This document shows, piece by piece, positions 1 to 20,500 of a DNA stretch of 64,000 nt; within the stretch, counting starts at the first letter, position 1; each line of letters starts with the position of its first letter. Source of the DNA: Craspedostauros australis (lineage: Eukaryota); the NCBI GenBank assembly GCA_030167865.1, contig JALAGF010003973.1:1-64000 (forward strand), read 5' to 3'. A model generated the notes under the pieces. That model did not search any database. It was not told the DNA's origin and saw only the letters and a list, made by a program, of their open reading frames with translations. Position numbers and translations under genes: made by a program.

Positions 1-698
1 GACATGACAATTGCCTTGCACTTCTGTGGATTATTTAGAAACATGAAATTATATTTCGATAAATAGCATTACCGCACCTCCCAGCGACAGCACGCGCAGA
101 TCGTGTGGCGGGTCTCCGGTCGCCTTGAAGGCGCGCCCAGAATCTGGTTGCCGTCAACATGCAACGAATACCGCAAACAAAAGATACATGTGCGGCCTGA
201 TTTAATACCAGAAGAAGGGCGCAATGAACCATTATCGTATCAGGAGAACGCGTACAAACAACAAAGGACATAGTGTACCATTCGTTATATCATGACAGCA
301 TGCAGCAGAAGGTTCACCATCGTTCGCGTTTTATCACACGTTCCCCAATCCAACTCAGTTGATGTCACAATGGATCAGCTATTCCAAGTACACGGATCAG
401 CTTCAACGAACTGAAAACCGCTTTCGACGTTGTTTCTTCGCACGCACGTACGATGGCCAGTCGTTACTTGTGTTCAATGAAAATGAAAATGCGTCGAAGA
501 CATAATAGTTATATATATGTACTATCGCAGCTTCCAATGGCACCAAACGCAACAGGAACCCACAACACTGCACACAAACTCACAACACTGCACACGAACC
601 CGTCAATCCATCAAACAACGAAGTAATCAAGCCGACAAACTACCATCCAATCCATCCAGCACAAGCAGCACGAAACCACTCGCATTCAGCCACTCAAC

Positions 699-1496
699 AT
701 GAAGTTCCGTCCGTGCATTGACCTGCACAACGGCCAGGTGAAGCAGATCGTGGGATCGACGCTGGCGACCGAGGCAGGAAAGACTGCTGAGGATGCTGCC
801 CTCAGCACCAACTTCGAGACGGACCGGCCTGCCGCCGATTACGCCAAGATGTACCAGGACGACAAGCTGACGGGTGGTCACGTTATCATGCTGGGACCCG
901 GCAACAAGGACGCGGCCCGATCGGCCCTGCAGGCGTACCCCAATGGACTGCAGGTCGGCGGCGGCGTCAACAACACCAACGCCAAGGAGTGGCTCGACGC
1001 AGGCGCATCGCACATCATCGTCACGTCCCACGTCTTCTCCAATGGCCAGATCCACATGGAACGCCTCAAGGAGCTGGTCACCATCTGCGGGGGCAAGGAG
1101 AAGCTGGTGCTGGACCTGTCCTGCCGAAGGAAGCCGGAGGAACCGGAGGGCGACTACTACGTCGTGACCAACAAGTGGCAGACCTTCACCGATTACAAGG
1201 TGACGCCGCAGAATCTGGTGGAGCTCTCCAACTACTGCGACGAATTCTTGGTGCACGGCGTGGATGTGGAAGGCAAGCAATGCGGCATCTTGGAGGATCT
1301 CGTGGAGCTGCTCGGAAATCACAGCAGCGTGCCGGTGACCTACGCCGGAGGCGTGCGCTCCATCGAGGATCTGGAGCTCATCAAGAAGATCGGAAAGGGC
1401 AAGGTGGATGCCACCGTGGGAAGCGCTCTGGATTGCTTCGGCGGAAAGCTACCGTACAGCGACGTCGTGTCATGGCACAGCAAGGAGCAGCAATAG
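699..1496 (+). CDS. HIS6: Phosphoribosylformimino-5-aminoimidazole carboxamide ribotide isomerase (eukaryotic HIS6-type HisA)
   Basis: 265-aa ORF starting MKFRPCIDLHNGQVKQIVG, with GGHVIMLG, LQVGGG, EFLVHGVDVEGKQCG, TYAGG and TVGSALD motifs typical of HIS6. Confidence 0.95.
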   Translation: MKFRPCIDLHNGQVKQIVGSTLATEAGKTAEDAALSTNFETDRPAADYAKMYQDDKLTGGHVIMLGPGNKDAARSALQAYPNGLQVGGGVNNTNAKEWLDAGASHIIVTSHVFSNGQIHMERLKELVTICGGKEKLVLDLSCRRKPEEPEGDYYVVTNKWQTFTDYKVTPQNLVELSNYCDEFLVHGVDVEGKQCGILEDLVELLGNHSSVPVTYAGGVRSIEDLELIKKIGKGKVDATVGSALDCFGGKLPYSDVVSWHSKEQQ

Positions 1497-2108
1497 AAGT
1501 TGGAGCTATTGGTACATGTGCGGTGCGAGCATTGGAAGAGAATAGCACATGTGTACTGGAGTATGCTAGGATGGAGAAGAACTGGCCTATTTATGTTCTA
1601 TTCTGATCTGCACTTCATCAACAATATAATGGCTCGTATAATAGTAGCAAAGGATTCCATCATCGAGGACGCTCCGGAGAGAGTCTCTACACAGGAACAG
1701 TGAGAGTACGAACAGACAGAGTGAGCGAGAGAAAACAAGAAAAATGATGCCTTTCCTGTTTTGGCCGAGTGTCATTTGTGATGTCTTGTGGCCGACAATG
1801 ACGCTGACGTACTGTAGTCGAATTGGTCGAAAGTGGCCACATCGGCTCAATCACCTGACACGTGGAAGAACGAAACCCAAGTTGAACCTGTTTGCGGCTA
1901 CCTCATCAACGGTCATCGCTTGAGCAACGCACAAGCAACGCAAACAACACACCTCGCGCCTCACAAGTCAAGCAAACGAGTGAGGCCACAGCAACATCAC
2001 AAATCACAGAAGGAGCAGCCGCAGCATCGTCCCTCTATTCAACCAACAAGCAACAACCAATACAAGTATTCTATAATACTATCCAAAGAAGGAAGAAGAC
2101 TAGAAAAG

Positions 2109-3086
2109 ATGGCACGCGGAGCAGAGGGAAAATTGCGTCGTCGCAACCGAAAGGAGGAAGAGAAGGCGACAGCCAACAGCTTCTTCGCGGACGCCGGCGG
2201 ATTGGGTGCTGCCACCGGCAGCCATGACTTCGGACCAGCCGACATCCCGATGCCACCGGGCATGAGCGAGGCCAACGTCGAGGAGGACGACTCCGCCGAT
2301 GAGGCCCCTGCCGAGAACGAAACCGCGGAGGATGAAAATGACATGCTCGTCCCCAAGAAGAAGAAAAAGAAGAGCAAGAAGAAAAAGATGAACGACTGCT
2401 GCGACAAGGACCTCCCACGCACACCGCAGCCAAAGGGCATCAAGTCCACCCCGCTCATCCTGCTCATCATCATGACCGGCTCCACCCTGCTGCCGGCATT
2501 GATTTTCGCCAGCGACTACCTCGGGAACTTCATGCAGCGCAACCACGTGTTGGGACAGGTCGGCTTCCGCCTCGGCATGGGCTCCGTGCCACGCAAGCGC
2601 GTGCTCAGCTTTTACGAGAAGCACGATCCCTCCAAGCTCGAGGACGTGCCCAAGATCCTCTCCAAGCACTACGGCGACTACCCCCTCCTCGTCAAGAAGC
2701 TCGAGCGCAAGTACCACGACTACGGCTACTTTCTGGGCTGGGAGGAAGACGAGGCGCCCATCACCCTCGCCAAGGAGACATTGCAGGAAACGTATGACAT
2801 TTGGATCCAGCAGTACTGGAACAGATACGCCCCGCAGCCCCTCAAGACGGCAGCGCGCAACGTCCGGTACAACCTCACCTTCCTCCAAAAGCGCCTGCGC
2901 AAGGTCTGGAAAAAGACCGTGTGGCCCATTTTGGAGCCCATCTTTGGGGTTCCTGACGGTGCGGCAGCGCAGAAGCGCAAGGACGCCGCCGAGGCCAGGA
3001 AACGGAAGCAGGAGGCATCCCGCACCAGCGGTGGGGGAGGTGGTGGACGACGCCGCAACACCGACTTCCGAGACGACGAGGACTAA
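2109..3086 (+). CDS. Hypothetical membrane protein (acidic/Lys-rich N-terminus, one TM segment, helical FY..HDPSK..V..IL.K..G....L...LERKY domain)
   Basis: Coding-like C/G third-position bias starts at ATG 2109 (MARGAEGK), inside ORF 1833..3086. Hydrophobic stretch PLILLIIMTGSTLLPALIFA. Confidence 0.8.
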   Translation: MARGAEGKLRRRNRKEEEKATANSFFADAGGLGAATGSHDFGPADIPMPPGMSEANVEEDDSADEAPAENETAEDENDMLVPKKKKKKSKKKKMNDCCDKDLPRTPQPKGIKSTPLILLIIMTGSTLLPALIFASDYLGNFMQRNHVLGQVGFRLGMGSVPRKRVLSFYEKHDPSKLEDVPKILSKHYGDYPLLVKKLERKYHDYGYFLGWEEDEAPITLAKETLQETYDIWIQQYWNRYAPQPLKTAARNVRYNLTFLQKRLRKVWKKTVWPILEPIFGVPDGAAAQKRKDAAEARKRKQEASRTSGGGGGGRRRNTDFRDDED

Positions 3087-3490
3087 ACCAGAGGACAGTA
3101 GAGCACTCTGTGCATTGCAGCGAGAATGGTAATGGAAATAATGATAGTCCACTCGAATACATACGTGCAACTGCAAGTAGAACAGCAATGGCATGGTGCT
3201 TACATGACGCTGTCCGGGAGCACAGCACAGAATCCGCATCGTAATGTTTGGATCAATGTAGACCAACGTTGCGAATGTCTCGGAGTGATCAACTGCTTCT
3301 CGCTTCATCAGCGAACACGCTGTGTACACGTTTGTGGATGCTGCTTCCTAAACGAATAGAATAGTCATCCATGAGCGTGTCATGGGACCAAGTATTGTTG
3401 CCGTCGTTGAGGAAGAATGAAGTTGCTCGTCAATGTGCAAAAGGAAGCTTGCGTTGGACGAATTCGTAAGTTTGGACATATTTCACAGAT

Positions 3491-3501
3491 TATAAGCCCA
3501 A
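3491..3501 (+). promoter_or_regulatory. TATA-like element (TATAA) overlapping a degenerate A-box-like GCCCAA upstream of the permuted tRNA
   Basis: TATAAGCCCAA lies about 35 nt upstream of the tRNA 3' half, with a CAA at 3512-3514 where a Pol III start could lie. Confidence 0.4.
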
Positions 3502-3526
3502 GTATGACCTGCAACATCACTCAGCG

Positions 3527-3603
3527 ATCAGAAGATTCCGGGTTCGAATCCCGGGCAGGTTTCTGGTGACCTGTTGGCCCAACGGCAAGGCGTCTGACTA
3601 CGA
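3527..3603 (+). tRNA. tRNA-Arg(ACG): Circularly permuted tRNA-Arg(ACG): 3' half 3527-3562, spacer CTGGT 3563-3567, 5' half 3568-3603
   Basis: Swapping the halves gives a 72-nt cloverleaf: acceptor GACCTGT/GCAGGTT, D arm GCCC-AACGGCA-AGGC, anticodon stem TCTGA/TCAGA with loop CT-ACG-AA, variable loop AGATT, T arm CCGGG-TTCGAAT-CCCGG. Confidence 0.92.
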
Positions 3604-3607
3604 AGTA

Positions 3608-3615
3608 TTCTTTTT
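3608..3615 (+). terminator. RNA polymerase III terminator (TTCTTTTT)
   Basis: T5 run at 3611-3615, following a 7-nt trailer after the end of the tRNA 5' half. Confidence 0.7.
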
Positions 3616-4503
3616 GGTCCGTGCTGCGAGAAAACTGCGCCGTTGAAATGTGCTCATTTTTTGGATATGTCGTCAGTGTTGGAAGTGTTTGTAACAGGAT
3701 ACATCATCAGAGAGGCAACTCGAGGCCGTCCCTTGAATTGGAATGGAATGCTCTGGTCTTGTTTCATTGCTTTTCCATGCCTGTTTGTTGGCAATGGTGC
3801 ACTACACCTGCAATTACATGTGAGAAAGGACTCGAGGAGCCAGCTTTTCTTTCTTCGCCGCCGTCAATCATGGAAGGCCAGTCTGTTTCATACATTCCGG
3901 GGGGTTACAGCTGTGGCAGAGCTGCGGGTTGCTTCAAATCGGGATGGAAGGCCATTGAGTGGGACATTGAGTGGGAGACACCTTTCCTGTCACCACTGTG
4001 ATGTTCTAAGAGTGTCGTATCCAACTAGCGACCAGCGACAATATTTCTTCAAGAGGGTTGAGATCTCAGATTCTCACAGTTTCGTATGATCGCCAATGGG
4101 AGCCGATCAATAGCATCAATCCCTTCCGTATAACTCTGCTATATCCAATATTAACTCATCGAACATGGGATGCTCTCCATCCTGTCGTAACCTTCCCTCC
4201 AGTGGAATGTTGGTGTTGGAAGAGAACCCACGTTCGTGCGTTTTGTTTTGGATCCACGAGGTCTCACAGAATGCCAGAGAAGCCAAAAATGATGACGCCA
4301 ACAAGATAACACGATCGTCAGCCACCATCAACAGATCCATTCGCCGATGCAATCGCCGATCCGATCATCAGTCAAAAGTCACACACACACATAGCCAGCG
4401 AGAAAGCAACCAAGAAGCTCTCCCTTCCTCTTTGCTCATCCATTGCCAACCCAACCCAATCCCAACGCGATAGATCATGACAAGAATGACAAGATCCCCA
4501 ACC

Positions 4504-4968
4504 ATGATGAGGACCGCCACACTCTGCATGTCCATGCTGCTGCTCCTCGCATCCTGCAACGGCCTCTCTCCCAACATGCCCAAAACCACAAATGCCAACG
4601 CGGCATGCCAGACCCGACGCAACATCTTTGTGTCGGGCTTGACGTTCGCTGCGGCAGCCACATGCCTCCCCAGCGACGCCAACGCCGCCGTGGACTGCTT
4701 CAAGGACTGCCTCAAGAACTGCAAACTGATCGCGCCAAAGGACACAGCCTACTGCACCACGCAATGCACCGAGTACTGCAACCAGGACGATCGCAACGAC
4801 GGCCTCTCGGGCAGCGTCAGTTCCTCCGGCGGTGAGGTCGGCATCCTCGGTGGGACCTTCGGGCAAGGGACCGTGCCGAAGGGCGAGGACAAGCCACCGT
4901 CCTTCTCGATGCCAGGTTTGGACTTCTCCTCCGACAAGGGTCGCAAGCTGTTGGGCTACGGAAGCTAG
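4504..4968 (+). CDS. Probable plastid thylakoid-lumen Cys-rich protein
   Basis: Signal peptide (MMRTATLCMSMLLLLASCNG), then a twin-Arg lumen-type signal RRNIFVSGLTFAAAATCLPSDANA, then a CX3CX3C-X10-CX3CX3C motif. The start could be 4477, 4486 or 4504. Confidence 0.75.
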   Translation: MMRTATLCMSMLLLLASCNGLSPNMPKTTNANAACQTRRNIFVSGLTFAAAATCLPSDANAAVDCFKDCLKNCKLIAPKDTAYCTTQCTEYCNQDDRNDGLSGSVSSSGGEVGILGGTFGQGTVPKGEDKPPSFSMPGLDFSSDKGRKLLGYGS

Positions 4969-5536
4969 AGCGTCTCCATCCACACGCACAACACTCGTAC
5001 TTGAGGATTGGTATGTAGTCGTAGGTCGTACTAATAGACACCAGTTCACCACGTGCAGGCTCAGGTGATGATCGACAAGCGACAAGCTCTGGTGCTTTTG
5101 GCCCCATCAGTTCGTTGTGCGAGCACTGTGCAGAGCACACCCGCACGCTTCTACGCTACATACATGCTCCATACATGTGTAGTACTGGTACTGGTACGAG
5201 TGGCATACATTTATTGGATAGTTCTATTATACATAGTTATGCAATTCGGGAATGGTTCATGTTCTGTCGTTCATGTCCACCCTCGCCGTTGTTTATTCTT
5301 GCTCTTGTTGTCGCCTTGCTTCTGTTTTGCCTTTGCTTTCGCTTGCCTCTTGGAATGTGCTTCGTTCTATCTTCTCTTTGTGTTGTATTGGCGTTGGTCT
5401 TGATGCAGTTGTTGCTTTGGCGGGGTGCCATAGCATGGATGGAAGACGATACACAGTTATGAGGTGATGTACCCCCATGCAATGCATGCGACTCCATCTC
5501 TCTCTGTCTGTGTATTAGCATGGTATGCGCGCCTGT

Positions 5537-8500
5537 CTAAATGGTCTTGTAACCTTCGGCGATCTCGGCGCTGTTGGTCTGGAAGTCCGTCTCCATCGTC
5601 GTGACGTTGTTGATGGCGAACAGCAGCTTGCTCTTCAGGATTTCCTTGCTGGAGTACTTGGGTAACGCCAACGAGAAGAAGCAGGTGCTTGCGCTGGGAA
5701 GCGACACGTCCTTGTTCTCGCCTTGGGCCTTCACGTCTTCTTGGATCTTGAAAGGCGCATCGAAGTCGCCTTCCTTCTTTGGCAGCCGGTTACGAGCCCA
5801 CACGAACTGGAGGAAGAGCTTCTTCTCGTCGTTGCTCAGCTCTTCCAGAGTCTCCCAGAAGTACTGGATGGTAGGCTCGTCTCCCTTGTACCCTTCATAC
5901 TCCACGACGCGTCGGAGCAGATCCACATCCACCTCGTGGCTGCCGCAAATCACGTCTCGTAGCTCGCTGCCTGTGAACAGTGAGAGGAGTTCGACTGGGA
6001 TGACGTTGCACAAGCCCTCCACGAAGGCATTCAGCATGCGCTGTTGCCACCAGAGCAAGACTGGCCGTGAAGAATCGTCAGCCTGCTTGTTCGACAGCAG
6101 GTCGATCTCCTCCATGCACCTCTCCTTCGTCGTCTGCTCCTCGGTGATCGCTTTCCACACCGATTCCAACGGAAGGGGCAGATCGAGGGCAATGCCATGA
6201 CGGAATGCTGTTCCCACAATACGCCCAAGGAACACCAACGATTCCTCCACCTCTCTGACGGTCTCGTCTCGGACGGTCATGAGGCTGGAGAAAGCATCGC
6301 GGATGCGTCGTTCCGTGGCGGACACATCCTTCGTGTCTCCGTCGAGAACCTTGCCGTTGAGGGAGAACATGAACAGGTCCTGCTGATCGCCGACGCCTGT
6401 CACGTTGTTGGGAGTTGGATCGAACACTCCCAGCCAGCCGGATCCGTTCTCATCGCGCTGCTGCGTCTCGTGAATCGCGTCCGCGAAGGCCTCACGGTAA
6501 GGTCCTGAGTAATCATTCACACCTTCGCCGATCAGCTTCACCTTGAATGCTCTTCGCTGTCCTCCATGTCCCTTGGCAACGAAGCCTCGGCGGAGGGCAT
6601 TTCCACCCCACCCCTTCGTTTCGTTCTGCAGCTGTGAGAACACGCTGTACTTGCGTATCATGCCGCTGTTTGAACTGTTCATCACACGTCTTGCCTTCAG
6701 GCGGTTGAGACGGACGGTGCGAATCTCTCGCGGCAGTTCGTACTCATCGTGCGACAGCGGAGTTGGCGTGGCCGTGATGCTGGTCACTGAGCGGAGGAAT
6801 TCATTCTTCACGCTCGGGAGAATGAGCTCTCGGAACTGACGGATCTTACCGGCGATCGATGGCACAACCACCCAGTTGGCAGGGCTCGCAAGATGCCGGC
6901 TGCGTCCTGCACGATCAACCGGGGCGCCGGTTCCGCACAGCCCACCCAAGATACCTGTACCTTCCTGGCTTGGGCGGACAGGCATCCATGGCAGCGCGAC
7001 TCGGCAACGCTTGTTCAAGCAACGAATGATGGACAGCCTGGCCATGATGGCAGTGGCATGTGGGATCGGGGTGGCCAGCATACCAAGCGACTTCACGGCT
7101 GCCTCGTTGCAAGTAGAGTCACCGTCGCCTGACGGATCATCGGGTTGGCCCTGCTTTGTGCTGATGGCATGCTTGACCGCTGCGAGGACGATGTGGTATG
7201 GCGAATTGAGCGCATCACCCTCCTTCCAGCAGTCGCTGATCAGACTCAGCGCGTTGGCCAATATCGTGTCCGATTCCACGTCTCCCAGTCCACCGATCTT
7301 TCCATCTTCGATGAGTTTTTCAAATTCGGCTATGGTGGGGCCGGTGTCACCCTGGTCCATCCCCGCATCTCCGTGCGCTTGTTTGTACTTCTCGAACCAC
7401 TGCAGCGCACATTGGATTGGCGATTTGGGAAGCTCCTCGTCGTTCCTGGTTTCGCCGTCTGCGTCTGTTTTGACAGGGAGCACGATCGGCTCTTCCTTCC
7501 CTCCTCTGATTCTGCTGCTGATCCAACCTTCGCCGAGAGGTTCGTACCTCACGCGGTAACGGACCACTCCGCAAGAGTTGACGCGTCTTTCGAGGACGTC
7601 GCACTTGGGAATGACGGTGTTCACGGGGATCGTTCCGCGGTTGGCCGATCCCTCGAAGATCTCAAGGTCGGATCTGACGACCGCGCCGTTGGAGAAAACA
7701 ATCTTCAGCCCTCCAGGCGACACGCATCGGAATCGAGCCATGATCGGCAGCTCGATATCCCGAGCGCGATTGTGCTCGACGCTTGGGAGGCCGTCGACGA
7801 CCTCGCTTTCGTCAAAGTACCATGCGCGTCCACCGCCTTCGGTCAGACTACCACCTTCGCTCTTCTGCAATGCGATTCTGTAGTACAATCGGCCCTGGCA
7901 AGTTCCAAGTATGGTGGCCTCTTCGGCTAATTCGAGAACGCGGCCCGCGCTCCTCTTGAGATGGACTCTGTCACCTGGCAGCAGCGCATGGGGCAATCCC
8001 AGAAGTGCGCTGGCAGACGCACAGGCAAGCGGCGACCGGTCAAGTTCCACGTCAAGGCCGAAAGATGCCAGCTTGTAGGGTCCGCTGCCTCGTGTTTGGG
8101 AGTAGCATGTGGACGCCGACAACCACCTTCGGTAATCGGCAAATGCTTCTTCCACGAACCATCGCGGGAAGGCGATGCCCTTGCTGTCCTTCGGAATGGC
8201 ACTGGTACTGGTGCTGTCGTTGTTGTTGCTGCGACTGATGCGGCGTGGTATGCACTGCTTGTACAGAGACAGGACTTCGTCGGCAGCAAGGATGTTATCC
8301 ACGATGGCGCGCCCGTCGATGCCGTAGCTTGTGGACCACTTCGATGATATCGTCACCCTGTCACCCACGTTCCTGAGACCGATGACAGGCCAGAGCGCCT
8401 TCGGACGCACTGCGCCTTGTGCGGGGTACCGCCCGCTTCTTCCAATGTCAATTCCGCTTGGAGCGCCTTGCGCAGCACCGCCGCTGCCGCACCCATCAAC

Positions 8501-11500
8501 GTTGAAGCCAAATGGCGAGAGGTTTTCGAATGCACACCCGAGATCGTTCATGATGTGCTCTCCGTACTTCAGTCCATCGAAAAAGAAGGAGATCCTGCCT
8601 GTGTCACAATCCAGCAACACGCCAACCGTGTCGCCGCTGTGGCAATGGGCACCGTACACACGTTCTGCCCCTGCCGTGTAGGTCGCTCGGAAGTTGACGA
8701 AGCCCCACCCGTGCCATCGGTTGAGACGCGGTTGGCTTTCGTAGCCAAAGGAAGATCCAGACCCACCAGACCCGGATGGCTTCTCGGCAACACCGATGAA
8801 GACGCTGCCCGTGTCAGCTTGTTCGATCTTGACCTCCCAGTAGTGGACGCCCTTGGTGAAACCGACAGAGGCGAATGCGGTGCCTCGGCTGTCGGATGAA
8901 GTGCACGAGACTGTCCGCCCGTCCCTTGACAGGGACAGAGATGGTGCATGGAATGACCTGTCGAATCGGATCGGAGCAGCCGGTATCGTCTGAAGATCGG
9001 ACGCGACCTCGCCGATGCTCTTTGGATGTCGCAGCGATCGAGCGAGTTTCATCTCGCTGAGGACCTGGATCTTGCTGCCGCCACGTTCTCGGTTGCGCAG
9101 GTTCGGGACGACGTAGGTGTTGCCTCCCGCGAGGTCCTCGTACAGAGACTGGTGCGGCGAACGTGCATCAATCTCAGACTGCGAGCTTGTTCGATTGCTT
9201 GGTTTGAGAATGTAGGTCGTCCCAGCGACGAAGGATGGGTGCCCGAATCGTGCTTCCCACCCGGAGTCCCTTGCACCATACACCAGGTCTTGTTCCGTAA
9301 TGGAGAGGGAGCCATCGGCGTGGACAACGCATTGCACCTGAACCCCGGCACCAAAATCTGGCCACTCCAGAATACCGTGATGGACCGAATCCTCCTCCTT
9401 TTCCTCTTCCTTGCCAGATCTGGATGCTGCACGTGACAGTCGCAGAAGCACATTGTGACGCTTGGCGACGCCGAACCCGTGCCTGGATACGCATTGCTCG
9501 GAGCTTTCTGGCAGTGGGTGGCGCTTGCGAACGCGCGTTGCCTTGTCGTTGACTTCGACATGGCTGATGTCGTACCTTCCTCCATCTCCTCCATATCTGT
9601 ACACGCCTTCCTTGCCTGTCAGATGCCAACGGACACGACGCGCCATGCCCTCGACTCCATTCCACGGCTCGATTCCTATCACCGTACCAAGAGCGAGCTT
9701 CGGGTTTGGAATCCTCTTCTTCTTGTTCTTTTCCTTGCCCTTGCCTTCGGTTGTAGTTTCTGGAAGATCTGCTTGTGCCGAATCATCGGCGGGATCGGGG
9801 GTGTCGCTGGAGATCTGATTCGCATCATCTTTGGTTCCGTCATCGTTTCCGCTGCTCTTGTGCTCACCGGACTTGGTCCCCGCGCCATCATCGTCTCCGT
9901 CTTCAGAGTCTCCTTTCGTCTTGTCATCCGGATCTTCGCGAGCTGCCTTCTTCTCGTCGTCGTGCAGCTGTTTCTTTTGTTCTCCTCTCTTCACCTTCGC
10001 TGCTTCGTAGATGTCCTTGCCATCCTCTGTGCCGTTCTTGCCCGATTCCTCCCAGTCAAGCCCGCGCACCACAAGGCATCCCTCCCGGAGCATCGGCGGA
10101 CCGTCGCCGCCATCCATCAGGGTTCGGACTGCGGATCTGGAGGGCGTCTTCCAGTCGACGGCCTTGCACGAGACTGTCCCGGTCAGAATCTCAAATCCTG
10201 AGTCGCTCATGAGCCATCCGCCTTCCACTTCCCAGTGGTTGCTCTGGGCAACCCCTTCCTGTCTTGCTGGGGCGAGATATTGCATGGGGGTCGCGGCATC
10301 TACCTCTGCGGTGCGCCATGACTCCATGAAGCTCGCAGGGAATGTGGCCGGGTCAACCGCTCTGTGCACGACGGAGACGAGCTCGATCAATGCCTGCACG
10401 TATCTCGAGCAGACCGGCACTGCAGCACGCTCGGCCCAGACACGCCGGCTTACCGTATTCTTCAGTCTCCCGAAGTAACGGCCTAGTGTTGGCACCGATT
10501 CCACAACCTGCTTCAAGGCAGCAGGATGAGTGTTCAAGATCCCTGCAGCGGTGAATGCCGATATCATTCTCCATGGCAGCGAGGCTGATAGCAAACCGAT
10601 GCTCCAAGCTTCGAACAGTCCGGTCTTGATCTCATCGTGCGACTCGACGCCATTCTCCACTTGCGGACTCAGCAACAGACCCGAAAGCAACGAAATCAAC
10701 CGAGCATCGGGGAATGCCACAGTCTCCCTCGCATTTTTCTTGGATTCGCTCTTCTTCTTCGCAGCAGATGACTTGCGCTGTGACGAATCGCCCTTGTTGG
10801 CGTTTTCTGCTTCTTCGTCGTCGTTTTCTTCATCATCCTCATCATCTTCATCCCGAGGAGAATCTATCGATGCCGAATCGTCGCCGTCGTACTCAACCAC
10901 AGAGAGAAGGCGCACGCCTCTCCTCACCGCTGCAACGACAATGTTCCGGAACGTGGCAGATTTGCACACGGCACTTTGGATGCCATCTTGCAAAAATACC
11001 ATGATCCCGCTGCCTCCATCCGAACCGATGACAGCCTCTGCTGCTGCAGCGATTGTCGATCCCGTGTCCATGCCCTGGGGGATTTGTTGCCACTGCAAGA
11101 GACAGGTGAGGACTTGGACAGTGCCTCCCTTCGCAATGAGCACCCCGTCGTCCAGATCTCCGATGGAGGCCACTCCTGACTTGTCGGATCCGGAATGACG
11201 CGAGTGGCCATGCTCGTTGCTTGATATGCCCAAGCCGAGAGCTTCCGCTGCAAGTGCCATCGCCCCGGCCTCTCCAACCCAGCCGGTGGAGAGGAGGCTC
11301 GAGCTTGACTCAAGCAGCTCCCACAGCTTCAACGCACCATCCACGTCGCCTTCTGCGAAGCAGACGGAGGGGTCAAAGTCTTGACCAAGTGTCACAATGA
11401 TGTGGAGCACAAGTTTTTGAGCGAGCAGAGCGAGGAGAGCCTTGCTTTCTTTGTTGAGCTCCTCAACGATCTGCAACCCCACTGCGTCAAGTGATTTGCG

Positions 11501-14500
11501 CATCCTAGCATGCGGTGATGCCATCACTCCGTCCTCCTGATTCGCTTCTTCCGTCGACAGACCATCAAGCTTCGGTAGGTGGCTCTTCAGTCGACGACCG
11601 ACGCAGTTGGCAGGCGTCATGGTCCCGGTGGAGATGATGCTTGATGATTTCTGGCTGCCACTGGACTGCTTCGGACGCCCTGAACCAAGATGCACAGATG
11701 CGTCAGATCCATAATACCTGTGCGCCCATGCCATGAGCTCGTGGCCGTGTTCACCGTCGGAGAAATCGCAGAGGAAACGGTGGTCATCATCCTGGGCGAT
11801 CCCATCAAGGATCTGTTCCTTGCGGACAAGAGCGCTGCGTTCTTGGACTGAATCGAGGACAGCGTCTCCAACTCCACGGTACCCCTCTGGTGGCGGGTAC
11901 CTGAAGTGCTCATTGTCCTTGCCTCCGAGAATGAGACGAAGCTTTTCACGTTTGTTGAAACTCACGCATGCGTATACACCCCCGCACGGACGGAAACCCG
12001 TTCCCGAGAATGCAACACCCATGCCAATCTCTTCACCGCGTCCATTCAAGGTGAACGACATGGTCTTTTCATCCATGTCCACCAAGCAACCAACCACGTC
12101 GCCTTCCTTCCACCGGCAGCCCCATTCGGTTGCAGAAGAATGCCAACGGTACCGTCTCCACCCGTCGTATGCCCACGAACTTGGCCCATCGCCACAGCCG
12201 TCTCCCCTGTCGGCGTGGCAGTGGCCAGCAAAGCTACCATCCGCCCAGCCGATTTGCAAGCACCCAGCTGTCTCCAGAATGGCCTCATAGTACCACTTTC
12301 CTTTGGTCAGAAGGATTCCCTTGGTCCCAACGGACGAAAACCCACCAGACGGAAGGCCGGAAATGGCCAACGTCTTGGGATCAATGATGGATCTTCCGGA
12401 AATGAATCGCAACGGCGTGACTGATCCCTTCCAATGTGGCTTCATATCTGCCTTAGTGTCATCACTCTCTTCGCCAGCACTTGTCCTTTTGAGTTTCGGA
12501 TCGCATTTGTCGCTCTTGCTGTCATCATTTCCTTCAACGTTGGAGGCATCGACGTCGCTGCCTTCGTTCTGGCTGTTGTCATCGTCATCGTCATCCTCAT
12601 CTTCGTCGTCCTCTTCTTCTTCATCGTCGTCGTCGTCATCATCGTCGTCATCATCATCAGCGTCATCCTCATCTTCCATGGCCTCGTCTTCCGCAGTCAG
12701 GCGTTCGCCGTGGGTGAGGATCCATGTCAGTGCTTCGTCGACGTTGTTACCGTTTGCTGCCAATGCTTCAGCGCACCATCTGCTGGGGAATCCCATCTCG
12801 AGCAGTTGCTGGAGAAGATGGTTACTGGTTCCATCAGACCGTCCGCCGCGGCCTCTTCCGCCAGAACTTGATCTTCTCTGACTGGATCGCTCTCTGTCCC
12901 GTTCTTCCGCGAGAAGCCGATCCATGTCGCCACCATGTTCCAGACAGAAGTGTACCGCAGCCTCGATGTTGGTGCCGCCGGTGCGTCGAAGTGCAAGCTC
13001 CGACCACTGCCTTGGCAAACCAAGCTCTGCCATCTGCACAATAGCAGCTTCTCTCAGGTGTGCTGCGGCGGCTGCGGCGACCTCGCTCTCATCTTCGTCG
13101 CTGTTTTCGCTTCCCGCCGTCGATTGGGAGATGCCACGAGGCTCATCGCCACGCCCAGCATCGGCATTGCCTCTGCTGCTCGTGCTTGAGGTTTGCGGCG
13201 GCGTTCTGAGCCTTCCACCCTCGGAATCATTGTGCCCGTCTCCGCCAGAGTTCTGGTTGTTGGACTCAGCATGAGCGTCGGCAGCGTTCGCTGATGTCAG
13301 CTTGCCACGAAGTTCTGCAATTCTTGACTCCCACTCAGAAGACGCCACGTCGTCCAGAGTTGATATGCGGAGTGAGAGTTCATTAAGGAGAGAAAGGAGA
13401 TGTGTGCACCGCGCCTCCAAAAGATTGATTGAGGATAAGAAAACGCCAACGTTGTTCCCGTCAGGTGTGTGCAGCGGTTTCTGGCATGAGAGATTCAGAA
13501 GCTGCGAGAGGCATTTTCTGGATTCTTCTCGCTTGATGAAAGCTTCCAGATTGCGCTTGTCTGCGAGGAGTGTCATGGCTGCTCTCAGCGCCAACGTTGC
13601 GGCGCAGCATCGAGTCGTCTTTGATGTTTCATCGGCCAACGACAGATCTTCCTTTGACTCATCGCTTTTGGCGTCGGTACTCTTTTCGTCAACGTCCTTC
13701 TCTTCCGCGCATCCCGTTGCGTCGATGGGGGGTTGGATTCTCTGCAGCGTCCGCGTCAGGATCAATGTCTGCAGCTCCCCGTTCTCAGCTGGCTCGTTGA
13801 CGACGACAGGAACCTCTTGTACTTGGACGACATCGCCCAGCGGGCACCGCAATGCCCTGACTGTGAGCGCGTTGCGACTGCTCTTGCGATTCTTCGGCTG
13901 CTTTCCGAGGACGGCTTCGCTCGATTCCGCGTCCGTGTTTGCGCCGACGTCCGTATCTTGTTGACGGGAGAGGAGGACAACTTCGCAAAGACCGTTCTTG
14001 ACGTCGACGCTGCTGACAATACCGGCTGATGAATCGTCTCGACAAAGTCCTGCGATCACTCCCTCAGTGCCGTTCCCGACTACATGGTGTGGGACATTTC
14101 CCACTGACGAGCTGTTGCCGCCGGAACTGTGCCCCTTTATGCCCAGGGCCGACTGCTGATCCGAGGCGACGGCAGCAGCGGTGGGCGGTTTCATCAGAAC
14201 GTACGAACCGCACCGAATCTGATCCAGACCGCCGTTGAGGAAGGCAAGGATGCCAATCTCGGACACCGTGGCGTCCGCAGTGTCGGGCTGTGCATCTCTG
14301 AAAACGTCGAAGATGACACGATTCAGCTCGGCTCTCCAGGCCAAGTTGCCTGGTCTGTGCAAGCGACGCAACAGCGAGACGATCTCATTCCTCACCACCT
14401 GCTCTTCATTCCCGAAAGGGTTTTTGGCAAGGAGGATGGATGCTGAACCTGCCGCTTCAAACAATCCCATGAGGAGGGCATTGTCAGGATCGAGTTCTTC

Positions 14501-17500
14501 CACGATCGGAAGCACCATGCGGACAAGCCTACTCCTGTGGCGTGCAGGGAGAAGCCCTTGCGGGGAGCTTGCGACGTCGTACGCCAGAATTCTGGACGTG
14601 CCGTTCGAATCTTGAACTGGGCTCAGCCCGATTCCCTCCAGCAAGAGATGGAGCCATTCTGGACGTTCGCTGATGTACTTCGGAGCGAGCTTATCATTCG
14701 ACACCATCGACAGCATGTTGAGGATGTTGCCCATGTATTTGTTCGCAAAGCTATGCTCGGACCGACCAACGGCATCCCTCGTGGTCTTGGACGATGACGA
14801 TCTCGAGTTCTTCGTCGATGGCCTTTGGGATGTCGTCGGACTTTGTCCGTTCGAGAAAATACTCCAGCTTTCGATGTGCCGGAGCCCAGCCCCGAAACTC
14901 TTCGATGCACCCTCTGCAGTTTTTCGAGATGCCGATGAAGTCTTCCTGTCACCAGCATCCACCGAGTCGACTACGCTGGTCCATGTCGAAGTCTCTTGCT
15001 TTTTACAGTGCTCCGAGATCATGGTCTTCGTGATGTCGCGCAGAATCGGGAACGTTCGTTGGCATTCATTGTAGAGGAAGGATGTCGCTTCTTCGAACGA
15101 CCGCCCGGATGTGTTGGTTGCATTGGACAGGATTTGCGAGTGGAGGACATGAGCTGCGGTAACGGAGGATTTGAGGATGACCCGCGAGAGATCTCTTTGG
15201 CAGAGATGATCGAGGTGGTGCAAAGGATTGTCGCCGTCCGCGATCTCATCCACGGCTGCATCTTCGAATTGCACCGATCTGATAGCGGGCTCGTGCGTTG
15301 CAATGAGATTTGAGAGCCTCTTCAAGATGTCGCTTTGCGAAGCGATGGCATCTACATCGGCCGGGTACAGAGTTGTGATGAAGGAGCTGAGCACCGACAT
15401 GGTGAGCGAGTCCCATGATGCTCTATCTTGCAGCATTGCAGTCGTGATTCTTCCTGAAAGCAAATGTCCAAGGATTTCTCCAAGTTCGTAAAAGATTTTG
15501 ATCACCGCTTTGCGCAGAGACCTTCGGACAGAGGACTGGGCCCCGGACAAGGAGGAGAGGTAATGCCTGCCGACAGACCCGCCTGATGCCGTTGACTTTG
15601 GCTCGGATCCCCTCTTCAGCCCGTTGCCGTCTCTGCCAAGAATCCTTGGGATGTACACGATCATGGCTTCGAGGGAGACTGCGGAGGCTGGGCTTTGGTT
15701 CGTTCCAAGCTCTGACAGCATCTGGGTTGCTTGGGATGCCGCTACGTACTTGAGGATGCATCTCGTTGCTGACCTTTTGAACAGCAGTTTGATCCACTCC
15801 AGGTCCTCAGCAGAGTTTACCGTCTTGTAGAAAGCCTTTATGTCCGTTGTCATCATGGTCACGGAGGTCGAATCATCGTCATCGACCTCAAGACCCAGCA
15901 AGAAGAGCGACGTGTTGTTGACAAGGGAGCATACCGCCTTGCATTGATCACGGCGGCTCTGAGATTTGTGTTGGCTGATCGCGCTTCGTACACCATTCTC
16001 CATCACAAATAGTGCAGCCTGCCACACGTCAATGAGACGGATCGGAGCATCTTTCGGAGTTCCTCCTAACAGATTCCTCAGATTGCCCAACTTGACCATG
16101 GCGCAGATGATGTTGATTCTGGCCTCATTGTACTCCTGTGGGGCAAGCATGCGTAGCGAACCAGAACCGCCAGCTTGTGGGGCGATGTCGGGATCCATCT
16201 TGCGCACGGCTTCGGAAATCCAAGCGTTGATTTCACGAGTACGTTGGGGTTCAGAGGACTTGCTTGGTTCGGCTTCTTGCAAGGCATCGAGACGGAGCAG
16301 CTTCATCCAGTCTTCGTCATCCTGCTGCGACACGGTGGTTGGGGGTCGGAAGTCGCTCTGCAGAGACTCCATGATTGCATCATTGCCTTCCCAGTCCGAT
16401 GGTATGGAAAGCTTGGACATGAAGGCGCTATCGAGGCATTCTTGCAACACCGTCGTTCTCTTCGACCACTCGCTGGATGAAAAGAGGGTTTTCTCTGGCT
16501 TCGGCGAGGTCTCTGCGTCCCAGCCTTCGGAATCGCCGATCATGGCGACCAAATGGCCGTAGCTTTGGCAGAGTACCGCCATGTCGGTGAGTGTCCAGTT
16601 TGTGGTGGAAGCCACCGCGGGTTCGTCTATGGATTTGCTTGCGCGTGGGGACCAGTATCCTGATATCTGACCTTGGGTTCCGAACTGGACATTCTTGTAC
16701 ACTCCTTCGAATTTGGTGCCATCCAGGCTGGATCTGGCCGTGACAACGCACGATGATGAGATGTCGTCGTCTTGTGCCGAACTTCCTGACTGGGCCGATG
16801 TGTTGCCGGCCTCGGACCATTCTTCGACGAACGTTACCATGGAGCCTCGGGTTGTGCCCATGATTGATACCAGCCCATTTTTGGATTTGCCAGTAGTTCC
16901 AACGCCGCTACCTTGGAAGCCAAGCGTGCATGTGCCGTCGGGACCTGACCTTGAGCGCGAAATGTCCACGACGTATTCCTCGGCGTCAGTCGTTGTTCCT
17001 GATGATCCTGTGGCTCGGATGATCCATTGGCCTTCTCGGATGTTGCAGAGGGAAAGGTGCTGACCCTCTTCCTTCATGTCTTTGCATGCCTGATTCAGAA
17101 CGAGGATGCACTTCGCAATCCGAGGCAACAGCACGAGCGCTGTGCGTTTGGAGAGGTTTGGAATCCATGATGGGATGAGGCTCAACGTCGCCCCGAGCGA
17201 TGGTAGCAGTTGTGTTGTGTGAAGGTCGTCAAACTTCTTGGCCTTCACAGTCCGAACAACTTCCTCCAGCAAGTCACAGACGTACTGTGTGCCATCCCAG
17301 CTGAGGTGGTTGTTGATATCCCGAACAGCCTTCAAGCCGGAGCCATCTGCCTCATCTGCTGATGAGGTTGGGTAGAAGCAGCTGCCTCCGGATCCATCGA
17401 AGACCATTTCTCGTGTTGTCGATCTCCCCCTGCTCTCCACGGTTAGCAGGGTGACGCGGTCGTCACGCTGGTAGAGCCCCACGGCTGGGTAAAGCTTGGA

Positions 17501-20500
17501 GTCGAGAGGGAGCCCTTCGAATGCTACACCCCAATCCTCCATGGTGCCTGACGGTGTGCCTGGACGACGCGGTGACGTTGGGGTCTGCAGCAGAGGGTCG
17601 ATGGAGAACGACGAATTCGATGAACTGTCCTTCCACGACGTGAAGCTCAGTGTGCCCACATCAGTATCAAGCGTCACGATGATCGTCGATCCAGTTCGGA
17701 AGGTGGCACCGTAGTCGCCGCGGATCTTCTTTCTGTCATGCCACAATGCCTGCGTGCCGATCATTCCCCAGCCGAACTTGTCACCCCCGACGTACGTCTT
17801 GATGTTGGCTTGTGCGGTGGACACGCCGACGAAGACGTGCCCGCGTTCGCATTTGTCGAGACGCACTGCCCATCGATGGACGCCGGTCTTCGGACTGTAC
17901 GAATTGGCTGACAGGACAGCGCCCCAGGCCTTCGAGGCCCGTTGATGTGCGGATGCACCGTTCGGTCCAATGTCCAATCCATCTGCGAAGATGGCTATGG
18001 AATCGGCGCATTTTGTTGCATCGAACTGCAACACATTCGAGCTCTTCGAGCTCACGCGAATGATGTCGTTTTGTGACGAGTTTGGAGTGATGGCGTTGTC
18101 ATCATTCTCACTGTCTCCGCCCCAAAGGCCATCCCACAGAAGGAGACGGACATGGCATCGATGGCAGATCGCCATGTACAGATCGCGAAGTTCTGAAGCG
18201 CCCTCAGCGGCAAAGACAGGCGAAGCTCGGATGGAACGAACGATATCGCTGACGAAGGTCGGGTTGCCATCTCTGCCGGTGACTATTTGCGCTTGTGTGA
18301 CGTGCTCAAGAGTGTCATTTGCATTGCTCGGCGAGTGACATGCTGGACGCGGAATGATGTGATCAAGCAAGTCGCTCACTCTGAGCCGGCGACAAAGCAC
18401 CTGGAGCCGATGGAAGGACACTTCGGCACTTGTCGTGGGCAGCGCTTTCAGTTCATCGATATGGCAAGACGTGCTGCTCTCGTCTGCGTTGGAGCATTCG
18501 TCAAGGTATGTGCGCAGGAGGGCGACTTGGGATGCCCTTGAGGGATGCGACATGGGGACGAACTCGCCCCAAACTTGAAGGGCCTTTCTGTACAAATCGA
18601 GACTGACTGGCGCCAGATCTCCTGCGTGCGCGCTGCTGTGAGCGGCTCTGGGTGTCGTGCCTTGCATCAACGAGGTTAGCGCAGCTGCGATTTTCATCGT
18701 AAAAGACGGGGGCAGCTTTCCCGATTGCATCTCCAATGTTCGAGTTTTGTCGCTCAAGCACGAGCGTGCATTGGCGTGGAACCAGTGCTGCAAACTTGTC
18801 AACACCATGATGCATGACTGGGATAGCATTTTCAGATGCTGCTCCCAGCCTTCGCAACGACGTCTCAATGTCTTGGCAAGGGTTGCGGCATCATGCGCGG
18901 CGGCGGCAGCCTTGCGGCTCATGCCCTTTGCCTCCAGGGTAGAAGCGTCGTTCGAGTCGGATGCGTCATCGAGGTATTCCAATGCCTTGGCAAGTGCTGG
19001 ATCTTCCTCCTCCACAAGCAGCCCTGCCTTGTCGTCGGTGTGGTCGGACAGTTGGTTTTCGCTCGATACGGCGCTCTCCTGTTGGAGGGCCTTGTGGTAT
19101 TGTTCCGATGCTGCATCGCGTTGCTCGACAAGGACGATGATGAGGGACAGAAGGAGGTGAAAGGAGACATGGTTCTCCTCGTCGTCTTGGCCGCTGTTGG
19201 GTTTCTCGGACTTCGTTACCATCCCTGTGGGAGGGAAGAGCGCGCAGCCGAGACCTCCTGTGATTGAGTCGGGCTGTTTGACATCCTTCCCCCGCTTTCC
19301 GGACGCTCGTTCCTCATTCTGCTGTTGCCGACTTTGCTGGCGTTGCAGCTGCTTGCTTGTCAGCATTTTGATGAACTTGAGAAGCTGGATGAGCACCTGT
19401 GGTGCAGGCAGTGCACCGAACTTGTCCAACGCCGATGGGTCCAGGTACTTCTTAGATAGGGCTGCGTTGCGATCCTCTTCTTCGCCGCCATACTCGGCAG
19501 GTCGAGCCAAATCGCCACTTGGTATCAGTGGAGCGTATGGGTAGCTGCCAGGAGGTTGTGGTAGAGGGGGCAACGCCAGGTCGATGTCGTCTGATTCGAC
19601 ACCGGCCGGATTGGGACCATCGGCTGTAGCAGAGTCGGCAGTGGGTGTGATTGGACCCGTGCTTCCTTCGCTGATCAAAGACTCTCGGCTGTTTTGCACT
19701 TCGACTTCGACGGATGGGTTGGAAATCTCGACCAAACTCATAGCCAGGGCTTGTCGCAGGGCATCGCTGTCATCGTCGTTGCTGTCGCCATCGCCAGCGC
19801 TGCGAGTACCAGCGCTTCGAGTGGCGTCATTGGAGCCATTGTTCCTCGCTTGCTCGTTCTGCTCTTCGTTGTCAATGTCGTCGTCGTCCTCATCATCGGC
19901 GTCATCGACATCATCGGAGGGTGCGGCGTTTTCATTCGTGGCTTGTTGATCGTTGTTGCTCTCAGAGGATGAAGAAGATGATGAGGAAGATGAATCTGCA
20001 TTGTTGTTGCGACCTCCCAGCCCGAGATTGAGCAGCCCACTGTTCCGGACTACTTCCACAAAGTCATGTTCGGCCGCTGGGCCATCGTTGTCGTCACTGT
20101 CGTCGCTGTCATCCGACGAAGAATCGTCGTCATCATCGTCCAGGTCATCGTCGTCGTCGTCGTCTGAGGAATCCATATTGACTGTCGTTCCTCCGATGAT
20201 CTGTTGAAGGAGTGCTGCGCTGACTGCTGCGGCAATGTCTATGTCATCATCGTCGTCGTCCATGCCATCCATGTGATCGAAGTCATCGTCATCGTCATCG
20301 TCATCATCGTCGTCTGCATTGATGTTGTTGGTACCGCCAATTCTGTTGTCATCTGGGACGATCGCCGTCGCGACTGCAGTGCCTGCGTCAGCCCTGCGCG
20401 ATGTCACCAAGGAGTCTGAGAACAGCTGGAATGCTGGTGTTAGAGGCGAGGAGTGTTCACTGCTCTCCTGCTCCTTTCGGCGCTTTTCCAGAAGTCGTTC

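Follow-up and report, generated by a model that had tools for sequence, protein, structure and literature searches.

The question raised by this locus is whether a tRNA-Arg(ACG) whose two halves stand in the wrong order is a working gene and, if so, how a tRNA would be made from it. The window, that is, the whole stretch of DNA analysed here, is 64,000 nucleotides long, and the initial annotation had read the locus as a circularly permuted tRNA-Arg(ACG) gene, a reading borne out by the cloverleaf that the swapped halves form and by 29 metagenome loci with covarying stems. We consider it highly likely that the locus is a functional, circularly permuted nuclear gene of type II, broken at 37/38, for the cytosolic tRNA-Arg(ACG) of a diatom, and our verdict is that of a known kind of gene in a new major lineage.

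Both halves lie on the same strand, the 3′ half being 5′ of the 5′ half, with a short spacer joining the acceptor ends (Table 1). The 3′ half opens with A38 TCAGA and holds the 3′ strand of the anticodon stem, the variable loop, the T arm with GGTTCGAATCC, the 3′ strand of the acceptor stem and the discriminator U73; CCA is not encoded. The 5′ half contains the 5′ strand of the acceptor stem, U8, the D arm (A14, G18G19, C20), the 5′ strand of the anticodon stem and the loop nucleotides C32 U33 A34 C35 G36 A37, closing with CTACGA (nt 32-37). The anticodon loop is interrupted after nt 37, where the RNA would presumably be cut; the 5′ half stops at nt 37 and the 3′ half starts at A38, just as the initial annotation had it, and the coordinates and letters that it gave for the halves, CTGGT and TTTTT all match the window sequence. 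Directly 5′ of the 3′ half stand the bases ctcagcg, which are not a 5′ half. Read from the sequence, the locus has TATAAG upstream and TTTTT downstream, and the spacer CTGGT carries neither promoter nor terminator. By the precedent of Cyanidioschyzon merolae, TATAAG would be an upstream Pol III promoter element. Each half occurs once in the 64-kb window, as does the B box.

Table 1. Features of the permuted tRNA-Arg(ACG) locus in the window
Feature	Position	Strand	Evidence or remark
TATA-like box TATAAG	3491..3496	+	36-31 nt 5′ of the 3′ half; putative Pol III promoter element
Putative 5′ leader	3515..3526	+	Constrained fold and two-strand cofold
3′ half, tRNA-Arg(ACG) nt 38-73, 36 nt	3527..3562	+	Sequence, ARAGORN, alignment A1
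Intervening sequence CTGGT	3563..3567	+	Predicted to cap the acceptor stem in the precursor; would need excision
5′ half, nt 1-37, 36 nt	3568..3603	+	Sequence, ARAGORN, alignment A1
Trailer AGTATTC, then TTTTT at 3611-3615	3604..3615	+	Putative Pol III terminator

The host is most likely a pennate diatom, judging from the genes around the locus. GC content in the window is 52-58%, and its long ORFs encode proteins of eukaryotic type (Hsp70 family, SET, RING, 2OG oxygenase and His_biosynth). The 831-aa Hsp70-family ORF has an MMETSP transcript as its top match (75% identity), and its best named matches, Cylindrotheca fusiformis, Pseudo-nitzschia multistriata, Seminavis robusta and Nitzschia, are all diatoms with 64-67% identity, in keeping with the diatom-like host first proposed; none of these named organisms is closely related to the host. 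In six window ORFs, CGT, CGC and CGA together make up 256 of 438 Arg codons, so an Arg(ICG) decoder is needed; CGT and CGC account for 172 of the 438, which agrees with the earlier remark that these two codons are common in the neighbouring genes. An uninterrupted ORF of 5408 codons lies about 2 kb downstream of the tRNA, at 5537-21763 on the - strand, and its end is crossed by a transcript-like contig (5206-5815) of run X1, a set of Logan contigs whose kind is guessed as RNA. Five contigs of this run are 100% identical to the window (1500-1666, 2615-3150, 4698-5122, 5206-5815 and 6020-6244), and the interval 3170-4672, with the tRNA locus, lies outside them.

Joining the 5′ half to the 3′ half is enough for ARAGORN to call a tRNA-Arg(acg) over the full 72 nt, so the tRNA scan of the swapped sequence that the initial annotation had suggested returns the 72-nt cloverleaf with four stems that it had described, the D stem being short. 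The acceptor stem has 7 bp, including the wobbles G1.U72 and U7.G66, and the D stem has just three Watson-Crick pairs plus C13.A22; the anticodon stem has 5 bp with the loop CUACGAA, the variable loop 5 nt, and the T stem 5 bp with UUCGAAU. The consensus elements U8, A14, G18G19, U33 and U54U55C56 are all in place. When the whole window is read in its native order, ARAGORN finds no tRNA with introns either off or on, and no Rfam family reaches its gathering score, a silence that had been foreseen for standard tRNA scanners.

As a chance control, the window was cut at every third base, the two 56-nt arms were swapped and ARAGORN was rerun, a tRNA being counted if its "intron" spanned the cut. 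In the 64 kb, a junction-spanning tRNA was called solely for cuts at 3560-3566, and the same control on the reversed window and on five block shuffles gave zero calls. An unconstrained minimum free energy fold of the native 131-nt stretch did not recover the cloverleaf and was about as stable as shuffles (z -0.05); such an outcome is expected for a tRNA, and it was therefore set aside. We also considered a tandem array of ordinary tRNA-Arg(ACG) genes in the window and rejected it, as native-order ARAGORN finds no complete colinear genes flanking the gap.

The same layout recurs in metagenome contigs. A single scan of a metagenome contig collection, with a pattern made of the 3′ half start and T loop, 30-60 free bases and the anticodon stem-loop of the 5′ half, yielded 35 matches at 32 loci (labelled here with an L). 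The permuted layout is found at 29 of these 32 loci, in 32 copies, with 24 loci non-redundant (near-duplicate contigs are L001/L006, L003/L018/L031, L004/L010 and L022/L028), and a search for B-box-before-A-box loci, which had been proposed for diatom genomes, thus gave 29 loci of the same kind in metagenome contigs. Nothing tRNA-like was found 5′ of the 3′ half or 3′ of the 5′ half at the 29 loci, where native ARAGORN finds no ordinary tRNA gene and makes four calls with "introns" of 50-1143 nt. Swapping the halves gives a 72-nt Arg(acg) cloverleaf in all 33 copies, that is, the 32 from the metagenomes and the one in the window.

The spacers between the halves are 4-20 nt long in the 32 metagenome copies, and their sequence is not conserved. 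The 20-nt spacers of L004:1501-1592 and L029:1500-1591 hold a short palindrome (AGTGATATCACT in L004 and a related one in L029), which in the precursor would form a hairpin and so lengthen the acceptor stem, and the remaining spacers (4-19 nt) have no common motif.

The other three of the 32 loci (L002, L016 and L025) are bacterial-type tandem arrays in which native ARAGORN finds complete Arg(acg) genes; the match spans 100 nt in L002 and L016. Among 185,579 prokaryote species genomes, the same pattern matched four MAGs, of Sphingobacterium and Catalinimonas (L033-L036), and these matches, judged by their span of 100-101 nt, are typical of tandem ordinary genes. No match was found with this pattern in viral contigs. 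The bacterial tandem tRNA-Arg(ACG) genes (L002, L016, L033-L036) stand about 27 nt apart and offer a natural contrast to the permuted layout.

Two permuted copies are present in each of L017, L019 and L030. These tandem copies are about 50-450 nt apart (L019:18-273 on the - strand, L017:1500-2097 and L030:1500-1706). In L019, the 5′ half of one copy and the 3′ half of the copy that follows are read together by ARAGORN as an ordinary gene with a 100-nt intron at 37/38, which is what the model of an origin by tandem duplication would lead one to expect.

Pairing was examined in an alignment (A1) of 33 copies, with 27 distinct rows and the cloverleaf written in permuted order. Standard pairs are found in all 540 stem cells (27 distinct rows by 20 pairs), and changes on both sides were seen in four pairs (50:64, 5:68, 2:71 and 12:23), amounting to 16 cells. 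Pair 50:64 is CG in 22 rows, UA in 4 and GC in 1; pair 68:5 is AU in 12, GU in 11, GC in 3 and CG in 1; pair 71:2 is UA in 21, AU in 4 and GC in 2; and pair 12:23 is CG in 26 and GC in 1. In 500 shuffles, the paired share, the count of double-changed cells and the covariation score of the real alignment were never equalled, and its number of pairs with double changes was equalled once; since the copies share ancestry, such counts overstate significance and are not probabilities. Pairing fell to 27-49% of cells when the partners were slid by 1-3 columns. Of the 20 pairs, 14 were left free by the search pattern, which prescribed the anticodon stem, a single T-stem pair and one partner of a D-stem pair; that the anticodon, its stem and the T loop do not vary is therefore not evidence. 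The halves are intact across the copies while the spacers and flanks cannot be aligned, a pattern expected of neither a relic nor a misassembly.

Nucleotide 20 is C or U in every copy of A1, and C20/U20 has been described as a peculiarity of diatom nuclear tRNA-Arg (Igloi 2022). Nucleotide 37 (column 92 of A1) is mostly G, with A in the window, L019, L030 and L032, and the A37 copies of L019 and L030 also have the leader CAGTTG and the discriminator A73. This A37/G37 split suggests sub-lineages with differing modification at position 37.

Flank signals were counted in 29 distinct copies. In all 28 copies with a trailer that the contig does not cut short, a run of at least four T begins 4-27 nt past nt 37; the distance is no more than 14 nt in 25 of them. 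No copy of A1 has a T-run inside its spacer. Upstream, 27 of 33 occurrences of "TATA" in the 29 distinct copies start at -50 to -36, and AT content is 0.75-0.83 at -45 to -36, peaking at 0.83 at -40 to -36, compared with 0.49-0.61 nearer the gene. Permuted genes of C. merolae have similar upstream and downstream signals, and those of green algae have them less sharply (PMC3978253). By this analogy, a single Pol III transcript would start about 10-15 nt before the 3′ half.

The sequences flanking the two halves would meet at the anticodon loop of the precursor. In the window, the leader bases A3523 (-4) and G3524 (-3) can pair with U33 and C32, forming an anticodon-intron pair, and T3521-A3519 of the leader can pair with A3604-T3606 of the trailer in a 3-bp helix; the cofold energy of this junction, with its two loop-leader pairs and 3-bp helix, is no better than that of shuffles (z +0.32). 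In ordinary intron-containing tRNA genes, C32 reportedly pairs with intron position -3, an anticodon-intron pair that Baldi et al. are said to have described in 1992. Three leader forms able to pair with C32-C35 account for all 29 distinct copies. The first, AG at -4/-3, is found in 14 of 29 copies, the window included, and leaves a bulge of 3 nt (-2, -1 and A38); the second, GTRG at -7 to -4 (11 of 29), makes a 4-bp helix that is shifted by one nucleotide from the canonical register and leaves 4 nt bulged; and the third is GTTG at -6 to -3 (4 of 29). G stands at -3 in 18 of the 29 distinct copies, again with the window among them, and A or U at -4. In these 18 copies the 3′ cut site would fall in a 3-nt bulge, as it does in a 37/38 intron, whereas here the "intron" is open and its ends are the transcript's own leader and trailer.

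At least three of four leader pairs with nt 32-35 are available in 18 of 28 copies, compared with 13.5% of 4847 control 12-mers from the same loci, and all four in 10 of 28 copies, compared with 1.0% of the control 12-mers. In many AG-type copies, leader positions -7 to -10 pair with trailer positions +2 to +5, at the canonical spacing of a bulge-helix-bulge. Two-strand folding energies were hardly better than those of shuffles, with a mean z of -0.46 over 28 copies and 8 of 28 below -1. Across the copies, the bulge-helix-bulge motif is supported at most in its relaxed form, and the window copy is weak. Eukaryotic splicing endonuclease measures from the mature domain (PMC3978253), so a relaxed junction motif would suit it.

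How such a gene would be expressed can be proposed by analogy with C. merolae, from which the transcription, circularisation, order of cuts and A34 editing given here are taken. RNA polymerase III, directed by the TATA-like box at -36, would make one RNA with the 3′ half, CTGGT and the 5′ half, and would stop at TTTTT. This precursor would fold into a cloverleaf whose acceptor stem is capped by the 5-nt spacer and whose anticodon loop remains open, the leader being attached at 38 and the trailer at 37. The tRNA-splicing endonuclease would trim leader and trailer, and a tRNA ligase would link A37 to A38, closing a circle; homologues of Trl1-type ligase occur in diatoms (PMC4090602). RNase P and tRNase Z would then cut out the spacer, and, after CCA addition and deamination of A34 to inosine, the product would decode CGU, CGC and CGA.

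The main rival to this scheme keeps the gene functional and does without the circle: RNase P and tRNase Z would remove the spacer first, and the paired halves would then be trimmed and ligated at 37/38 like a split tRNA, or both routes would be used. The DNA does not fix the order of cuts, spacers of 4-5 nt form a tight loop that may be cut early, and archaeal split tRNAs are joined from paired pieces (PMC3978253). However, circular intermediates were found in the sole eukaryotes tested, and Bigelowiella natans, with its 5-nt spacers, has been placed in the same class (PMC3978253), so we regard maturation by the linear route as unlikely.

A second possibility is that the locus is the dead remnant of a tandemly duplicated, intron-containing Arg-ACG gene and that an ordinary gene elsewhere does the decoding. 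Such a remnant would fit the tandem permuted copies in L017, L019 and L030, and L019, readable as a gene with a 100-nt intron, fits an origin by duplication, but the "intron" of L019 holds a T-run that should halt Pol III. Moreover, a dead gene would hardly keep all 540 stem cells paired, with compensatory changes, over 27 distinct sequences, nor would it keep a T-run after all 28 uncut copies and an upstream TATA peak while spacers and flanks diverge completely, and we therefore judge a relic very unlikely.

It is still more improbable that the product is a tRNA-shaped RNA that is never opened at its acceptor end and serves as a regulator or decoy, with no role in decoding. An unprocessed transcript would indeed be a capped cloverleaf, but the features of an elongator tRNA (U8, G18G19, U33 and TTCGA) are kept, C20/U20 is typical of diatom cytosolic tRNA-Arg (Igloi 2022), the acceptor stem covaries as in charged tRNAs, and CGU and CGC codons require such a decoder. 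An assembly artefact, in which a tandem pair of ordinary tRNA genes was collapsed or misjoined, has a negligible probability even though the contigs of run X1 do not span the locus, as the same half order is found in 29 metagenome contigs with differing spacers and flanks, true tandem arrays (L002, L016, L025) differ in spanning 100 nt and in having a complete gene on either side, and the sequence upstream of the 3′ half in the window is not a 5′ half; the 29 permuted loci with covarying stems thus remove the collapsed pair that the initial annotation had named as the scenario against its own reading.

Read as a functional permuted gene, the locus is closest to the type II genes of Ostreococcus, Micromonas and B. 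natans, in which, as in the window, the 3′ half comes first on the same strand and the junction is at 37/38; both B. natans genes also have a 5-nt intervening sequence (PMC3978253). Type II genes and the diatom copies have in common an AT-rich upstream region, a T stretch downstream and no CCA, and a relaxed bulge-helix motif at the junction may be a further common trait. However, the type II hosts are green algae or a green-derived nucleomorph, whereas here the gene lies in a stramenopile nucleus, and the tRNA species that are permuted vary by organism (PMC3978253), whereas here Arg(ACG) is permuted across many species.

C. merolae, the sole eukaryotic system in which both a circular intermediate and aminoacylation have been shown, likewise has a TATA-like box within 50 bp upstream, a T stretch downstream and a spacer free of signals (PMC3978253). 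Its junctions lie at 20/21, 37/38, 50/51 and 59/60 and its genes carry extra introns, in contrast to the one junction and no extra intron seen here, and it appears to be without the box-binding subunits of TFIIIC (PMC3978253). In Auxenochlorella the halves are also in reverse order, and its permuted genes surfaced through an incomplete tRNAscan-SE tRNA set (bioRxiv 10.1101/2025.02.07.637104; PMC12633428); that organism is a trebouxiophyte green alga (PMC12633428), whereas the host here is a diatom.

The 34 permuted genes tabulated in PMC3978253 come from C. merolae, two Ostreococcus, two Micromonas, the B. natans nucleomorph and Thermofilum pendens. Arg(ACG) is absent from these 34, Arg is represented in the table by Arg(TCT) in O. 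tauri and Arg(CCT) in C. merolae, and permuted tRNA species are stated not to be conserved among organisms (PMC3978253). The available text of that article (Soma 2014) has no mention of diatom, Thalassiosira, Phaeodactylum, heterokont or stramenopile. A 2026 review of the tRNA genes of photosynthetic organisms names, in its accessible part, the same eukaryotic hosts and brings in Phaeodactylum only for its small tRNA gene number, and PlantRNA 2.0, in the part available, annotates two heterokontophytes and mentions permuted genes for C. merolae alone. We found no report of a permuted tRNA in diatoms or other stramenopiles in the full-text literature searched, most of it from outside subscription journals.

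Some of the metagenome loci can be tied to hosts or to each other through their neighbours. The locus L020 adjoins a CRAL/TRIO gene whose best full-length named matches are an MMETSP organism with a name beginning "Chae" (52%) and Attheya septentrionalis (48%), with partial-length matches in Eucampia, Odontella and Trieres, followed by pennate genera; the gene also has near-identical relatives. From these matches, we take the host of L020 to be a diatom, probably a centric one, and its tRNA is the most divergent of the set (G5:C68, C7:G66, D-stem G12:C23 and T-stem G50:C64). The ORF adjoining L030 has 74% identity to a Craspedostauros transcript, its sole named match, which places this locus in a diatom as well. 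Other neighbours of the permuted loci are of eukaryotic types (PP2C, TLC, MFS, NUDIX and GNAT). A TLC-domain gene adjoins both L003 and L017 with 76% identity, and the flanking DNA of L005 and L015 is 80% identical, so at least some of the loci are orthologous between species. A tblastx comparison of window positions 1-9000 with the metagenome loci found the tRNA alone in common and no synteny. In the ESM Atlas, the L014 ORF had no usable match and the L021 ORF gave glycosyltransferase-like leads without useful taxa.

Two of the 29 metagenome loci were placed taxonomically, and a diatom-wide spread of the permuted Arg(ACG) gene would be an extrapolation from these. That the permuted layout is the sole source of cytosolic tRNA-Arg(ICG) in all diatoms, fixed before pennates and centrics split, is a bolder proposal, which we put forward tentatively as a real possibility that falls somewhat short of probable.

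Permuted tRNA genes are on record from a red alga, a few green algae, a green-derived nucleomorph and one archaeon, with differing tRNAs affected from species to species (PMC3978253 and the 2026 review). The finding widens this range to a major, ecologically dominant lineage, where one essential isoacceptor is permuted in many environmental diatoms, apparently both pennate and centric. The tRNA sets obtained for diatoms with standard scanners are probably incomplete for Arg-ACG, and studies of codon adaptation and tRNA identity that build on them would be affected. In genetically tractable diatoms one could ask what makes a cell hold on to a permuted gene and by what means Pol III reads a B box that precedes the A box, and the loci with two copies provide material for the tandem-duplication model of origin. 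If the permuted gene is indeed the sole source in all diatoms, it would be the first permuted tRNA in a stramenopile nucleus and the first to be conserved as one isoacceptor across a large lineage, and it would have been missed because standard tRNA finders are blind to it. One of the main groups of primary producers in the ocean would then rely on a route of cutting, circularising and reopening an RNA to read CGU, CGC and CGA, which in this window exceed half of the Arg codons.
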